DNA from: Escherichia phage phiWec179
Direction: 5' to 3' (one strand)
Sequence record: LC739533.1
Length of the DNA: 64,000 nucleotides
Shown: positions 15,132-30,916 of the stretch, one piece after another
How positions within the stretch are numbered: the stretch's first letter is position 1
Layout: every line of letters begins with the position of its first letter
The notes under the pieces: model-generated
What the model saw: only the letters and a program-made list of their open reading frames with translations
Database searches by the model: none
Told to the model about the DNA's origin: nothing
Made by a program: the position numbers and the translations under genes

Positions 15132-15512
15132 TCAGGCTCCTTTACGATTATGGAAACAATCTTTCACTCGCTCTTGCACCCACTCTACACGAAGCTTGTT
15201 TTCATGCGCTCTGTTGTGGTTATGCTCTTGCACATAGTCTTCGTAGTTCACATTAAAGGGAACACTGACAGACAATCCTGCACAACGAAATTGTTTCTTC
15301 ATTTCTTTTAATGTCGCATCACTTAGGGCACAAAGCTGATTTGCCTGTTCCTCACTGAAGTTACTGTCCCACATCTCATCCCAGATAAAACTATCCAAGC
15401 ATACACATAACCCATGCCTTGTGCGCTCTTTAGTATGATGATCAGCAAGCCAACTTTCATAGAAAGCTAACAACACCGGACTACTCAACGGAACATTTTT
15501 ACTCTCTTGCAT
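15132..15512 (-). CDS. paralog family A protein
   Basis: AGGAG + ATG at 15512; LLAFYESWL...GLCVCL...KKQF...VPFN...RVEWVQERV. Confidence 0.5.
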   Translation of the reverse strand: MQESKNVPLSSPVLLAFYESWLADHHTKERTRHGLCVCLDSFIWDEMWDSNFSEEQANQLCALSDATLKEMKKQFRCAGLSVSVPFNVNYEDYVQEHNHNRAHENKLRVEWVQERVKDCFHNRKGA

Positions 15513-15873
15513 GATAATCTCCTCTCTTGGTTTCATGACAAACATCCTAATTCTCAACGAGGAACATCTTACGATCAATCCTCGGCAATTACAATTCATT
15601 TATCATCGCTTTTCCCTATCAATTATTCTATATATACCTGTTATTTTTGACACCCCCTTTGGTCAAATATTAATCGGCAAAATATCTGGGGGTACTCTAT
15701 AAAATGATGCCCCCTGTTCCTGCAATTTATCGAGGAGAATATCATTCGACTATCATCGGCAAAGAGACAGAAAAGCCTTTGGTAGCAAGGATTTATGGCG
15801 AGTACGTCAGGACTGCTTAACGCGAATTTTTCGGCCCCTCCACTTCTGCGAGCCGGAATCCTCAAATATCAAT

Positions 15874-15892
15874 GAGAATAATTATCATTATC
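15874..15892. promoter_or_regulatory. Fur-box-like 19-bp site GAGAATAATTATCATTATC
   Basis: 16 of 19 matches to GATAATGATAATCATTATC by eye; half-site TGAGAAT shared with 30352..30465. Confidence 0.3.
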
Positions 15893-16055
15893 ATTCGTAT
15901 TCAATAACTTAGGCGATCTTTTCCCCTGCTATAAGGTCGGGCCTAACTTAACCATCACTTTTCAAACAATCCTTTATCAATCAACTACTTAACAACCTAA
16001 ACATATGATTACTACGGTGTAAAGGTGCCGCCCATAACAGACTACCTATAAAATA

Positions 16056-16075
16056 GATGAGAATGATTATTATTC
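16056..16075. promoter_or_regulatory. second operator-like site (GATGAGAATGATTATTATTC)
   Basis: same half-site family; preceded by CTATAAAAT as at 15687. Confidence 0.25.
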
Positions 16076-16269
16076 AGACAATTCTTACAACAAATCGACC
16101 AACAAATCAAGAATTTTCTTATTTTTATTCACGTTTAAGAGAACGTGCTCAACATTCCGCTACGCGTAACGGTTCGCCCCCAAAAGATTAGCCTTTGCTT
16201 TCCTGTATATTTATACACTATGTGCAAGGTGTCGCTACACGCTCGCCTTGCCCCGCATAATCCTTCACT

Positions 16270-16498
16270 GTGCTAATGATTTCATAGTGCAACAATAACA
16301 CTTATTATTATATTACGCTTAATTATTCTTACATACAATGCTAATAATAAGCCAGCGTAATTAGTGTAAGCGTAATACGCTTGCAATAATTGCAAGCTAC
16401 ATAATCACAAGAAATAACCATCACCGATGGTTATGATTGTGGGGGTGTAGTTGGCTTATTATTAGCTCGCTACGTGTCCGGCGTAGCGTGCTAATGAT
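16270..16498. repeat. nested repeat/palindrome element
   Basis: direct repeat GTGCTAATGAT at 16270 and 16488; 14-bp inverted repeat GCTAATAATAAGCC (16340-16353 / 16453-16466); perfect palindromes GCTTGCAATAATTGCAAGC (16379-16397) and ATAACCATCaccGATGGTTAT (16414-16434). Confidence 0.6.
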
Positions 16499-16577
16499 GA
16501 CTCTATGAATGATTCATTTTGCAATTATTACAGTCTTCACTATTTCGGCAATAGTTATTATTTTAATGGTTTCATTT

Positions 16578-16737
16578 GTTATCGTTAGTTAGTTGGTTGT
16601 TTTGTCGTGTTATCGTTATCTTGCTTAGTATTCATCATGGTTTGATTGTTTGTCGTTATCAATCATCTTTCTATTATTCCTTTGATTATGATTAGTTTGC
16701 TTATTGTTTTAAGTCGTTAGTTGGTTAGTTGTTGCGA
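16578..16737. repeat. iteron-like direct repeats
   Basis: TCGTTAGTT(AGTT)GGTT at 16581 and 16713; GTTATCGTTA / TGTCGTTATC recurring in T-rich ORF-free DNA. Confidence 0.45.
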
Positions 16738-17011
16738 ACTGTTATCAACATTATAGTTATGCACTTATATTGCATAGATACGCAAGGGTAGATGATAATG
16801 GTTATCATTGCACTGGAAAGGAAGAAAACAGCCTTTTTCGGTTGTTTGTTGTTGGTTGTTGATCGATTTTAACCGCTCTAAATAGCTCTCTAATAGCCTG
16901 TTGCCCTGGGGTGTATGGTTATTCGTTTAATGGTTGATTAGCTCGATACCGCGATCTATTCAGTTTTGTTCTGTGTCGGTTTTTCATAGGCGGAATCTAT
17001 CAACATTGTTC

Positions 17012-17052
17012 GGGCAAAAAGAAAGGGCGCTTTGTGCGCCCTTGTTTTGTTG
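17012..17052 (-). terminator. rho-independent terminator closing the minus-strand small-gene array
   Basis: hairpin AAGGGCGCtttgtGCGCCCTT flanked by T-runs on both strands, just past stop of 17057..17476. Confidence 0.6.
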
Positions 17053-17056
17053 TCAA

Positions 17057-17476
17057 TTATAACGCTTCATAGATTGAGTAGATCCGGTTTGCCAGGTCAT
17101 TACGAAAGCGGAATTTTTCATCACGTTTAATCATCAGATCCTTAAAACCGCATTCTTTCAAGGCTTCATTAACTTTACTGCGGCATACTTTCATATTGTC
17201 CTGCGCGTCACCAATAAACTTATTGCTATGATGCATTGTTTTGATCTCTTCCTCCAGGACCAGGGCAACTACACGGATCGGATCAAGCTGATACGCGGTA
17301 ACATCCATGCGGCATTGTAAACGGCTTTTAACATCGTTTACCGGATACACTGCAACCTCTTCCCCGTCAACGTTCACAATAACCAGCTTACCATCAATTT
17401 CGAAGCCTTTCGCGGCGCTACCGTGGCAAAAAGCGTTATCGAAGGAGTAAGCCGGATTATTTGATTTAATGTTCAT
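17057..17476 (-). CDS. hypothetical protein
   Basis: ATG at 17476; 139 aa. Confidence 0.5.
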   Translation of the reverse strand: MNIKSNNPAYSFDNAFCHGSAAKGFEIDGKLVIVNVDGEEVAVYPVNDVKSRLQCRMDVTAYQLDPIRVVALVLEEEIKTMHHSNKFIGDAQDNMKVCRSKVNEALKECGFKDLMIKRDEKFRFRNDLANRIYSIYEAL

Positions 17477-29555: not shown

Positions 29556-29829
29556 GATCTTAACTCCAGGTGATGAATGATGTTTTTTGTTGGTTGACGG
29601 TGGATTATGGAGATCCTCACCTTTGCCCGTCCTGCATTGCGCCCTCCTGTTGTTTATTGTCGTTGTGCCTCGCCCCCCTCGACAAGATTAATACTACGCT
29701 ACCAGGTGCGGAACGTCAACGACTTTTTCAATCTTTTTTATTTTCTTTTTGCTTGCTATATATAAAGGAAAGGGCTATCATCTTTCTACCGCGCCAACCA
29801 GGGCGCACAACAGAAGAAAGGGCGACACC

Positions 29830-30096
29830 ATGACAACTACTACATTACACCTTATGCACTCGTTAGGCTGGCAAGGCGGCACGGTCCACCAGGTAGCAAG
29901 CGCAACGGGCTTAAAGGTTGAAACAGTTCTCAACCTGGGCGATCATAAAGTGGAAGAGATAGACCATTTTGATCCGTTCGCTGATGGTTATCTCTGGGCT
30001 TGCAGTGGCGGCGGGGAAAGCAAGATACCGCCAGCCGCGCGGGGCGATATGCATTTTTGGTTAGGTGTTCTCTCCTGGCAAGAAAACAAAAAATAA
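29830..30096 (+). CDS. hypothetical protein in GC-rich island (tentative)
   Basis: ATG at 29830 (MTTTTLHLMHSLGWQGG...); only plus-strand ORF between two minus-strand arrays; overlapping ORFs in other frames. Confidence 0.3.
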   Translation: MTTTTLHLMHSLGWQGGTVHQVASATGLKVETVLNLGDHKVEEIDHFDPFADGYLWACSGGGESKIPPAARGDMHFWLGVLSWQENKK

Positions 30097-30098
30097 TC

Positions 30099-30127
30099 TT
30101 GACAAGCCCAGGGATCGGGCTTATACT
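30099..30127 (+). promoter_or_regulatory. sigma70-like promoter before a GC-rich structured segment
   Basis: TTGACA-N17-TATACT, then about 110 nt GC-rich sequence with no convincing ORF. Confidence 0.4.
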
Positions 30128-30351
30128 GTTTTACATACAGAAGAGGAAGCGCCACCCCACGGCGTAAAGGCGGGGCTAACATACCAGGGGCACTGGTTGG
30201 AAGGTCGATCGCCGGGAGGCTGGGCGCTATATATTTGTAAAGAAATGTAAAGATAAAATAATCGCTTGCTTTCCTGGCTGGATCTGTTATTCTTATTACA
30301 TGGCGAGGGGACACGGGAGCGCGAGACAATCACCGGACCTGCCCGTCATTC

Positions 30352-30465
30352 TGCAAATGAGAAAAATTCTCATTTGCAAATAAGACTCATTCGCATTTAA
30401 TAATTGAATGAGAATCATTCTCATTCTCATTCGTATTTCGATTTTAAGTGAGAATAATTCTCATT
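30352..30465. promoter_or_regulatory. three operator-like palindromes sharing half-site AATGAGAA
   Basis: TGCAAATGAGAAaaaTTCTCATTTGCA (30352-30378, perfect 12-3-12); AATGAGAATcATTCTCATT (30407-30425); TGAGAATaATTCTCA (about 30449-30463). Confidence 0.5.
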
Positions 30466-30476
30466 TCGGTAATTTT

Positions 30477-30680
30477 CACGTAAACTTTAGAATTTGCTTT
30501 TCAACTTTCACTTTTGTAAAAGCAAAAAAACTTTAAATACCTGGTGCGCGCGACTTTTTAAAAAATTTTTCTCGGTTTTTTGCTTTGAAATCTGGCCCAC
30601 CAATTTGAGATAGTGTACGTAAACTTTAGAATTTGGTTTTGGATTCTCACTTTTGTAAACTCGTAAAAAGTTTAAATAAT
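30477..30680. repeat. imperfect ~64-bp direct repeat (two copies)
   Basis: ACGTAAACTTTAGAATTTG..CACTTTTGTAAA..TTTAAATA at 30477-30539 and 30616-30680. Confidence 0.5.
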
Positions 30681-30805
30681 TGTAGGGATTTTGAGATAGT
30701 TTGCTTGTAAGGTTTGAGATAATCCTTCCCGAAGATGTTACGCAGCCTACAGCCTACCTGAATGCTCGTCTAACGAGATTAACTCTAAAAGATGAGTGTT
30801 GGTGT

Positions 30806-30846
30806 AGCTAAAGAGAAAAGGCTCTCTACGGTGTTGTAGGAGCCTT
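30806..30846 (-). terminator. rho-independent-like terminator after NADAR gene
   Basis: minus strand hairpin AAGGCTC..GAGCCTT followed by TTCTCTTT, about 70 nt past stop of 30917..31444. Confidence 0.4.
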
Positions 30847-30916
30847 ATTTCTGTGGCACAAAGTTGACGTATTCTTTTTAAAAACGAATTTTTTCAAAAT
30901 ATCACGAATATCGCCT

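Follow-up and report, generated by a model that had tools for sequence, protein, structure and literature searches.

What does a large lytic phage keep in a part of its genome where no gene is conserved? We address this question for a gap in the genome of Escherichia phage phiWec179 (sequence record LC739533.1), of which a window of 64,000 nucleotides, the whole stretch of DNA analyzed here, was available. The phage is Phapecoctavirus-like (Stephanstirmvirinae), a myovirus of roughly 150 kb. Genes occupy the minus strand on both flanks of the gap, which extends from about 15515 to 17056 (about 1.5 kb); an earlier interpretation made from the letters alone (hereafter the sequence-only reading) had recognized the ORF-poor stretch (ORF, open reading frame) and had begun it at 15600, some way into the gap, given that the left gene starts at 15514. 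Between 15500 and 17100 the sequence is 98.3% identical to Escherichia phage phiWec181, and it shares 80-90% identity with phAPEC8, Schickermooser, ESCO5, Mt1B1_P17, and about 120 further records. Comparison with these relatives points to a physical genome end, present here in joined form, and, 190 bp inside the right end as measured from the edge of the terminal repeat, to a folded element of ~150 nt whose pairing has been maintained by compensatory changes. The features that define the end are as follows.

15818-16149, no strand: direct terminal repeat (DTR) of 332 bp, one copy in joined (concatemer-like) form, placed by homology to the DTRs of relatives
15813-15821, plus strand: left DTR edge motif CTGCT/TAAC (the slash marks the edge), the repeat starting at T15818; coincides with the DTR starts of relatives
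16145-16153, plus strand: right DTR edge motif GTGCT/CAAC, the repeat ending at T16149; coincides with DTR edges of relatives

The evidence for an end comes from deposited records in which the termini are apparent. The Schickermooser record begins and ends with one identical sequence of 329 bp, the Mt1B1_P17 record does so with 328 bp and at the same boundaries, and the records of phi92 and UAB_1 annotate a right terminal repeat of 343 bp with matching edges. Aligned to the window, the DTRs of all four phages map to 15818-16149, which indicates that the ORF-free region is the physical genome end in joined form; a single copy of the repeat is what a collapsed or joined assembly is expected to contain. 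Published DTR lengths are 328 bp for Schickermooser (PMC6563267) and, by PhageTerm, 342 bp for BME3 (PMC12210895), and DTRs are stated to be general in Stephanstirmvirinae (PMC12695924), so the terminus itself is already known for the subfamily. Many other relatives have deposited records that start or stop within the gap. In IMG/VR, the genome of one isolate (L023) opens exactly with CAAC, one base past the right edge; a contig from a metagenome begins 28 nt inward of the left edge. The DTR edges agree within 1 nt among independent laboratories and two genera, as expected of fixed, sequence-defined ends that are not permuted. Homology thus places the ends of the virion DNA of phiWec179 at 15818 and 16149, and the 332 bp between them are predicted to be carried at both packaged ends. 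Among the proposals of the sequence-only reading, that of a packaging or regulatory hub is borne out to the extent that the region holds a DTR, by homology to exact or annotated DTRs in four relatives; the terminal repeat itself had been missed.

The packaged orientation is the reverse complement of the window. The packaged left end reads from 16149 downward through a leader of ~300 bp into small early genes, and early and metabolic functions (NrdD, a UvrD-like helicase, TelA) are encoded elsewhere in the window. The packaged right end comprises a gene (17476-17057), a terminator (17043-17023), ~870 bp of conserved non-coding DNA, and the DTR. This right-end region is 86-97% conserved within the genus and partly 70-85% conserved across genera, which we read as a sign of selection. 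The DTR interior and the left side are mosaic between phages, and the interior keeps a conserved skeleton that includes two box motifs described below.

In four lineages, the two DTR edges share one short motif, GTGCT/YAAC, in the same register and orientation. It is found at both edges in Phapecoctavirus and in Citrobacter phage Tr1, at both edges of Justusliebigvirus in the forms GTGCT/TAAC and AGGCT/CAAC, and at the right edge in the Klebsiella phage; the longer left-edge sequence GTGCT/TAACGCG is kept in Phapecoctavirus, Justusliebigvirus, and Citrobacter Tr1. Across the 64 kb of the window, GTGCTYAAC has a single exact match, at the right edge. We infer that the motif is a candidate terminase cleavage site. 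As a separate observation, several relatives carry a second right-edge copy, GTGCTCAACAT, 58-67 bp inside the right DTR edge (tuntematon 796, UP17 700, WPEC1 383, Citrobacter Tr1 2228) and preceded by an inverted copy of TAAGAGAAG; the window and Schickermooser are missing the second GTGCTCAACAT copy and look like deletions between the two copies.

Within the gap, conservation runs deepest at 16340-16530, where identity stays at 75-85% as far out as Justusliebigvirus and the Klebsiella and Citrobacter phages. Most of this part is taken up by the folded element, for which an RNAalifold consensus from a 19-sequence alignment gives five helices.

16340-16488, plus strand: structured element, ~150 nt
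16340-16354 / 16452-16466, plus strand: helix P1, 15 bp, which closes the element
16357-16393, plus strand: P2, a long hairpin that includes the palindrome at 16380-16398
16396-16402 / 16445-16451, plus strand: P1b, which continues P1 past a three-way junction
16414-16434, plus strand: P3 hairpin, with an extension at 16405-16410 / 16437-16442
16468-16488, plus strand: P4, the 3' hairpin

The sequence-only reading had listed several of the component repeats, and a check of the sequence found every named feature where it had been placed: the direct repeat GTGCTAATGAT at 16270 and 16488, the perfect palindromes GCTTGCAATAATTGCAAGC (16380-16398) and ATAACCATCaccGATGGTTAT (16414-16434), and an inverted repeat pair, which is perfect over 15 nt (16340-16354 / 16452-16466) rather than over 14 bp. 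Inverted 8-mers are indeed in excess between 16260 and 16500 (20 observed against 4.0 expected, a number reached by none of 300 dinucleotide-preserving shuffles). The palindromes do not, however, stand as separate features, since both are helices of one larger fold. ATAACCATCaccGATGGTTAT corresponds to P3. GCTTGCAATAATTGCAAGC is not self-contained: a segment upstream is the pairing partner of its 3' half, and covariation with this segment (AU/UA/GC and UA/CG) is seen at the variable bases in the center of the palindrome. In a set of 16 distinct sequences, pairing holds in 99.9% of cells and 12 pairs are compensatory, compared with pairing of 23-51% when partners are slid; with 27 distinct sequences the paired fraction is 99.7%, compensatory double changes occur at 15 of 53 pairs, up to four pair types are seen at one position, and slid controls give 24-52%. 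Not one of 500 shuffles of the 27-sequence set reached any of these measures. Transversion-type mismatches are confined to five isolated cells, in two or three sequences (two C.U, two A.G, one G.A).

The fold also has a strand. The 27 sequences contain 129 G.U cells, at 12 pair positions, and no A.C; two of the G.U pairs are invariant and a third is held in 25 of the 27 sequences. Read on the minus strand, 90.6% of cells would pair, and folding energy is -75.9 kcal/mol on the plus strand (z-score -8.8, for the consensus shape) versus -58.3 on the minus strand, a difference of 17.6 kcal/mol in favor of the plus strand. The presence of G.U without A.C implies that only the plus strand folds. These properties bear directly on a simpler view of the repeats, namely that the palindromes and inverted repeats are nothing other than double-stranded binding sites for dimeric proteins, with covariation produced by half-sites that track protein specificity. 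Such a view would accommodate the near-perfect palindromes with minimal loops that form several of the helices, and the fact that the outer 10 bp of P1 are an invariant word, GCTAATAAT, that recurs unpaired nearby. Half-site drift should nevertheless generate mismatches of all types and on both strands, whereas the variable mismatch positions are G.T on the plus strand in 12 of 12 cases and A.C in none, with no transversion-type mismatch apart from the five isolated cells. Further, P1 pairs over 97-120 nt with covariation that goes beyond the shared word, and the central bases of GCTTGCAATAATTGCAAGC that covary with a third segment upstream are non-palindromic. Strand asymmetry and three-segment covariation together disfavor double-stranded half-sites as the whole explanation, and we regard it as very improbable.

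The word that recurs around P1 can be written GCTAATRAT and occurs four times in the window, all of them here: at 16272 (plus strand), 16340 (plus strand), 16458 (minus strand), and 16490 (plus strand). The copy at 16340 is the 5' strand of P1, and that at 16458 is its 3' strand. In the Klebsiella and Citrobacter phages, further copies flank the element.

A covariance model built from the alignment finds exactly one copy of the element in the window, at 204.7 bits, and 11 further genuine copies in metagenome and IMG/VR loci, chance pattern hits having been rejected; by this model about half of the 23 metagenome pattern hits are chance matches. IMG/VR was also scanned by exact pattern, with few loci. 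The element matches no family in Rfam. In the literature on this region in phAPEC8-, phi92-, and rV5-like phages, we found only the existence of the DTR and an unexplained 'non-coding' box in rV5. The DTRs of phi92, UAB_1, Schickermooser, Mt1B1_P17, and BME3 are homologous to that of the window and have the same edges (328-343 bp), and the five records or papers report the repeat only, none describing an edge motif, boxes, or a folded element. As far as the literature and databases searched show, a covarying, strand-specific element of this kind was previously undescribed, and what is new beyond the known terminus is the shared edge motif, the Fur-like boxes (see below), and, above all, the folded element.

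A diverged counterpart appears to exist in the rV5-type Vequintavirinae. The gene on the right flank of the gap (17057-17476) has a homolog there that is about 90-91% identical, and downstream of this homolog in rV5 (NC_011041, ~104014-106617) lies a 2.6-kb ORF-free stretch between convergent operons. Box motifs next to CAAATATC and P1-, P2-, and P4-like helices occur in it in the same orientation, and the score of the covariance model there is low but significant (21.7 bits, E 4e-5). The rV5 version differs in that a 124-nt insert replaces P1b and P3 and that about nine ACTGTTyAC iterons, absent here, are present. The authors of the rV5 genome labeled the stretch only 'non-coding' and noted a skew change there (PMC3606486).

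Taken together, we consider the gap to be a short-DTR myovirus terminus in its concatemer-junction form, with a plus-strand element that serves end processing or packaging, and give this interpretation a probability of roughly 55%. Under it, the terminase would recognize the conserved right-end region and cut within GTGCT/YAAC at both edges of the DTR, and the single copy of the repeat in the concatemer would be duplicated by fill-in or strand-displacement synthesis. The early-gene (left) end would enter the cell first and hence be packaged last, so that, by analogy with T7 and with the cosB site of lambda, packaging would start at the right end. The element at 16340-16488 would work as a folded plus strand, either as DNA exposed during end processing or replication or as part of a plus-strand transcript, and may be a recognition or priming signal in end processing. 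The GCTAATRAT words and the Fur-box-like sites might bind organizing proteins, whether host Fur or a phage protein, much as IHF and R sites do in cosB. Most likely, the element acts in cis at the right end, where it would take part in packaging or in the processing of the end. That it acts as DNA would suit its position next to a physical DNA end and inside a cis-acting region, its near-perfect palindromic hairpins with loops of 3-4 nt, the confinement to its own spot of the GCTAATRAT array, which is typical of DNA-binding proteins, and the iteron array that rV5 has beside its similar fold in the same place.

Several features surround the element and enter into the weighing of this interpretation.

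16150-16339, no strand: variable spacer between DTR and element, with the palindrome CCGCTACGCGTAACGG (16157-16172), the conserved TTCGCCCCCAAAA, and the first GCTAATGAT word (16272-16280); from the alignment
16489-16498, plus strand: second TGCTAATGAT word, directly 3' of P4; from a word search
16540-16870, plus strand: C-depleted, T/G-rich block with the words GTTATCGTTA, TCGTTAGTTGGTT, GTTAGTTG (twice), and GGTTGTT (three times); from composition and repeat counts
16913-17006, no strand: deeply conserved block, GGTATGGTTATTCG...TTGATTAGCTCGATACCGCGATCTATTCA, with 83% identity to Justusliebigvirus and 77% to the Klebsiella phage
17023-17043, minus strand: intrinsic terminator of the last right-end gene (17057-17476, minus strand), annotated in phAPEC8 and Schickermooser, which looks bidirectional
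15598-15670, minus strand: conserved leader block of the leftward early operon, 84-88% identical to Justusliebigvirus amid variable sequence

A number of points count against a terminus with an end-processing element. The termini of this particular phage are assigned by homology, the roles in packaging, cleavage, and binding are putative in every member of the group, and the order of packaging and injection is argued by analogy. The terminase gene is located outside the window, none having been found in its 64 kb. With one mismatch allowed, GTGCTYAAC is not enriched and is found elsewhere in the window, and therefore cannot alone specify cutting and would have to work only in context; moreover, the two edge motifs are directly oriented, so that a staggered-nick model needs opposite-strand nicks at two like-oriented sites. 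Finally, so elaborate a multi-branch fold, in which three G.U pairs are nearly invariant, is seen more typically in RNA than in DNA signals, and the depletion of C on the plus strand downstream of it (3-13% C, kept in all four lineages even where identity is lost) would suit an untranslated, Rho-resistant plus-strand transcript.

The last two points lead to the most serious competitor, which we hold to be a tentative possibility: that the element is a non-coding RNA gene, or a structured domain of a plus-strand transcript running from the DTR side toward 17043, which acts in trans or cotranscriptionally (in regulation, anti-defense, or replication priming), its proximity to the DTR being incidental or related to early expression. 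Strong covariation over five helices with long-range pairing, the G.U pattern, and the folding z-score are all as they would be for an RNA, and the C-poor plus strand downstream resembles a transcript that escapes Rho. Weak TATATT/TATTAT sites of the -10 type recur 21-32 nt before P1 in several lineages, a plus-strand terminator-like site lies at 17023-17043 in Phapecoctavirus, and in rV5 a plus-strand operon reads into the region. Signals for dedicated transcription are nevertheless poor. No conserved sigma-70 promoter was found upstream of the fold, promoter-like sites are not enriched (nine against 6.8 expected), no terminator follows P4, and the plus-strand U-tract at 17043 is not conserved in Justusliebigvirus. 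Those who annotated phAPEC8 and rV5 looked for promoters and placed none here, there is no Rfam relative, and we found no transcriptome data in the literature. The small RNA genes suggested by the sequence-only reading are accordingly plausible but unproven: the covarying, strand-specific fold speaks for them, and the failure to find a conserved promoter or terminator speaks against them. Strand specificity itself does not separate the two possibilities, as it fits RNA and single-stranded DNA alike; we would put action as RNA at a little short of even odds, action as single-stranded DNA slightly lower, and anything else at a small remainder. A narrower version, in which the fold is a dedicated RNA of a terminase-type tailed phage, encoded at the genome end and acting on the DNA ends (for instance as a packaging or end-processing cofactor or a replication primer domain), and in which its expression or the condition of the ends might respond to host iron by way of the Fur sites of the terminal repeat, seems to us unlikely.

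Another function that had been proposed from the repeats is a replication origin. Here the fold would serve as a signal for single-strand initiation (ssi) or for the loading of a primosome, or as a domain of an RNA primer; initiators would bind the words and boxes, and unwinding would take place in the AT-rich, C-poor block. The GC content is the lowest of the neighborhood (0.36 versus ~0.42), with a local break in GC skew; strand-specific clusters of hairpins are typical of ssi and single-strand origin (SSO) signals; about nine ACTGTTyAC iterons lie beside the fold of rV5; and there is a weak, sub-threshold resemblance of the element to the Rfam plasmid replication-region motif ARRPOF. That resemblance (18 bits, E 0.13) is far under the threshold of 127 bits, however, and no plasmid relatives of the element were found. 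DnaA boxes (TTWTNCACA) number six in the window versus 8.75 expected, with none in 15500-17100. The T-rich repeated words that had been called iteron-like are present, at 16558-16746, and repeated 8-mers at 16558-16860 exceed expectation (20 versus 4.3, reached by 0 of 300 shuffles of the same type), but they are short repeated words in a compositionally skewed block, in which Tandem Repeats Finder reports only micro-repeats of 6-11 bp in 2-3 copies. True tandem iterons (at least three units of ~17-22 bp) are absent, and the GCTAATRAT words are 9 bp long and dispersed. No initiator gene was recognized next to the gap, the flanking proteins having no Pfam domain, and the skew change in rV5 was explained by its authors by the orientation of transcription (PMC3606486). 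A second non-coding region of the window, at 30.0-30.9 kb, is an equally good or better candidate. The proposal of an origin thus finds no positive support in the form of DnaA boxes, true iterons, a recognized neighboring initiator gene, or plasmid-origin relatives, and we judge it unlikely that the region is or contains one.

Reading the gap as a terminus with an end-processing element also invites comparison with ends that are understood in other phages. The concatemer junction of T7 has a short, exact terminal repeat that is single-copy in concatemers and flanked by non-coding processing and packaging signals, together with an RNA polymerase pause signal. The T7 background drawn on here is that of Dunn and Studier 1983 and of Chung, Son and Hinkle 1990. 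The region described here is similar in its exact DTR of a few hundred bp, which is single-copy in concatemers, its repeat-rich non-coding flanks, a cluster of inverted repeats ~200 bp inside the right end, and early genes at the left end. It differs in that there is no sequence similarity, that the phage is a myovirus of ~150 kb with no known phage RNA polymerase, so that the T7 pause signal has no counterpart, and that the repeats form a covarying, multi-helix fold of one strand instead of a simple palindrome. We know of no description of an identical cut motif at both edges in T7. In lambda, cosB combines R sites for the terminase small subunit with an IHF site beside the cut site. By analogy, the short words in mixed orientation near the cleavage site, on the side that would be packaged first, may correspond to R sites, and a site for a host DNA-bending factor may be a further likeness, but the ends here are direct repeats and not cohesive, the fold is strand-specific, and the binding sites are putative.

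The injection-stop region of T5 offers a third parallel. Its 'repeat region 3' is a conserved untranslated region of 1.2-1.6 kb at the boundary of the terminal repeat, the repeat is 10 kb long, eight DnaA boxes occur in pairs, and DNA is transferred in two steps via A1 and A2 (10.1101/866236). Both phages have, at the boundary of a terminal repeat, a large and conserved region that is untranslated and contains palindromes as well as nested and inverted repeats. The phage described here differs in its 332-bp repeat, its Fur-like boxes instead of DnaA boxes, and the location of the region at the opposite (right) end; a T5-type array of DnaA boxes was sought and is not present between 15500 and 17100. 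The packaging RNA (pRNA) of phi29 is likewise a structured element of ~120-170 nt next to a linear genome end: a long helix formed by its 5' and 3' ends opens into a three-way junction that bears two hairpin arms, and a further hairpin is located on the 3' side. However, the present phage is a terminase-type myovirus rather than a protein-primed one, there is no sequence similarity, and the element is known from sequence only. A phi29-type pRNA was rejected, as on inspection the P2 and P3 loops (UAA/UCAUU/CAU and ACC/GGU/AGG) are neither complementary nor covarying. Finally, ssi and SSO signals (the G4 origin, ssi, ssoA; Rfam ARRPOF) are also strand- and orientation-specific, heavily paired, 100-200 nt long, and act as DNA; they come from rolling-circle or single-stranded DNA replicons, and the element matches no family among them and has no plasmid relatives.

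Of the phages of E. coli, Klebsiella, and Salmonella, those of the Stephanstirmvirinae and Vequintavirinae rank with the most frequent isolates for therapeutic use, yet their genomes are deposited with arbitrary starts and with this region blank or full of spurious tiny ORFs. Physical ends with a conserved candidate cut motif provide a rule by which such genomes can be oriented and annotated. The element stands out as an unusually clear example of a strand-specific, covariation-supported structure next to the genome end of a double-stranded DNA phage. Should it act as DNA, it would define a new type of signal for packaging or end replication; should it act as RNA, it would represent a previously unknown class of phage RNA, present in Stephanstirmvirinae and, in diverged form, in Vequintavirinae.

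Three box-like sites, two of them in the DTR, resemble operators of the host iron regulator Fur.

15871-15897, no strand: box 1, AATGAGAATAATTATCATTATCATTCG, a hexamer array after the conserved CAAATATC; from motif comparison
16055-16075, no strand: box 2, GATGAGAATGATTATTATTC; from motif comparison
16758-16810, no strand: inverted repeat TATGCA-N7-TGCATA (16758-16776) followed by box 3, GATGATAATGGTTATCATTG (16790-16810); from motif and alignment

The boxes match the Fur operator consensus of E. coli, which we take to be GATAATGATAATCATTATC, with the core TGATAATnATTATCA. The reverse complement of box 1 agrees with GATAATGATAATCATTATC at 17 of 19 positions; the box is kept in Phapecoctavirus, Justusliebigvirus, and Klebsiella phage phi1_175008 and is gapped out in Citrobacter Tr1. 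In Justusliebigvirus, box 2 is TGATAATGATTATCA, an exact 15-nt Fur 7-1-7 core. The module of inverted repeat and box 3 is kept in Phapecoctavirus, in Justusliebigvirus (with the box duplicated), and in the Klebsiella phage; in Citrobacter Tr1, box-3-like sites are present and the inverted repeat is less clear. Across the window, the 7-1-7 core TGATAATnATTATCA with at most two mismatches has eight sites versus 0.6 expected, four of the eight in the gap region, and all matches to its central palindrome AATGATnATCATT with at most one mismatch fall in the gap or in the second non-coding region, at 30.4 kb. The 30.4-kb copies are perfect palindromes of TGAGAATnATTCTCA that favor GAGAAT/ATTCTC half-sites, a preference that makes a phage protein an alternative binder to host Fur. 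Box 3 overlaps a weak promoter-like site on the minus strand and follows a weak one on the plus strand; for boxes 1 and 2 no clear promoters were found, and a BLAST search of box 1 against E. coli genomes for Fur-regulated promoters was uninformative (E-values 2-8). We therefore treat the boxes in and beside the repeat as candidate sites for Fur or a phage protein, which appear to be new with respect to the literature searched. Fur-like operators in a terminal repeat, if real, would link the ends of a lytic phage to host iron sensing, which has not been described before.

Other parts of the right-end region show less structure. The spacer varies in length from 190 to 340 nt between lineages. 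The block at 16913-17006 is among the most conserved non-coding sequences over three genera, yet it forms weak hairpins with little covariation and could not be linked to any structure, motif, or function; elsewhere in the right-end region, too, there are weak hairpins only. On the left side, the sole promoter-like site facing the leftward early genes is GTGTCA-17-TAGAAT (15653 to 15625), and the block at 15598-15670 that contains it probably belongs to the leader of that operon.

The absence of genes from the gap also requires qualification, as the sequence-only reading had stated that no ORF of 60 aa or more is present. Two mechanical ORFs of greater length overlap the left part.

15511-15702, plus strand: ORF of 63 aa, from the ORF list, overlapping the left part of the gap
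15641-15865, minus strand: ORF of 74 aa with a TTG start, from the ORF list, spanning the left terminal-repeat edge

Taken literally the statement fails, but its substance holds, as neither ORF is annotated or conserved in frame: we rejected both as genes because they are unannotated in the 98%-identical phiWec181 and because local indels between relatives are not multiples of three. The sole long frame of the T-rich block was also rejected, given that it changes by nonsynonymous substitutions between relatives. A hydrophobic ORF of 33 aa (window ~16826-16925) occurs in phAPEC8 and Mt1B1_P17, where it starts with GTG behind a perfect AGGAGGT ribosome-binding site. It is not a gene here, since the window and Schickermooser lack the start codon and a TAG breaks the frame, and it is either a dispensable micro-gene or a chance ORF. 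ARAGORN found no tRNA or tmRNA in the window, in agreement with the sequence-only reading, and no Rfam family reached its gathering score in the window, where sub-threshold hits were at chance level only.

Automated annotation of some relatives (PsgM04F, Citrobacter Tr1, WPEC1, L013) fills the terminus with many 'hypothetical protein' ORFs of 30-80 aa on both strands, and these tiny ORFs are not conserved between relatives. Close relatives also include records labeled as Campylobacter phage (B15, A145, A147, and others), Pseudomonas phage PsgM04F, and Acinetobacter phage ABPW7, with 85-91% DNA identity in this region and 98% amino-acid identity in the flanking gene. The Campylobacter, Pseudomonas, and Acinetobacter host labels look doubtful, with contamination or mis-assignment possible.

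The second non-coding region of the window extends over ~29560-30916. Within it (region 30008-30470), a strong sigma-70-like promoter, TTGACA-17-TATACT (30100-30128), lies upstream of a GC-rich core of ~80 nt, CGCCACCCCACGGCGTAAAGGCGGGGCTAACATACCAGGG...CTGGTTGGAAGGTCGATCGCCGG. A search with this region matched 405 phage records, and the core is almost invariant in a six-sequence alignment of Stephanstirmvirinae and four Vequintavirinae lineages (an unassigned E. coli phage, Mydovirus, Seunavirus, and Certrevirus). The Fur-like box of the terminal repeat follows the core in all six sequences. Annotators disagree on the ORFs and the strand of the region, and the core matches no family in Rfam; it may be a non-coding RNA or a leader with a regulatory role, widely conserved in either case, and is also a candidate for an origin or a regulatory hub. 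A direct repeat of ~60 nt, cgtaaactttagaatttg...cacttttgtaaa...tttaaata, occurs downstream of the box cluster at 30479-30540 and 30619-30680, and three TTTGAGATA words are found at 30606, 30692, and 30714.

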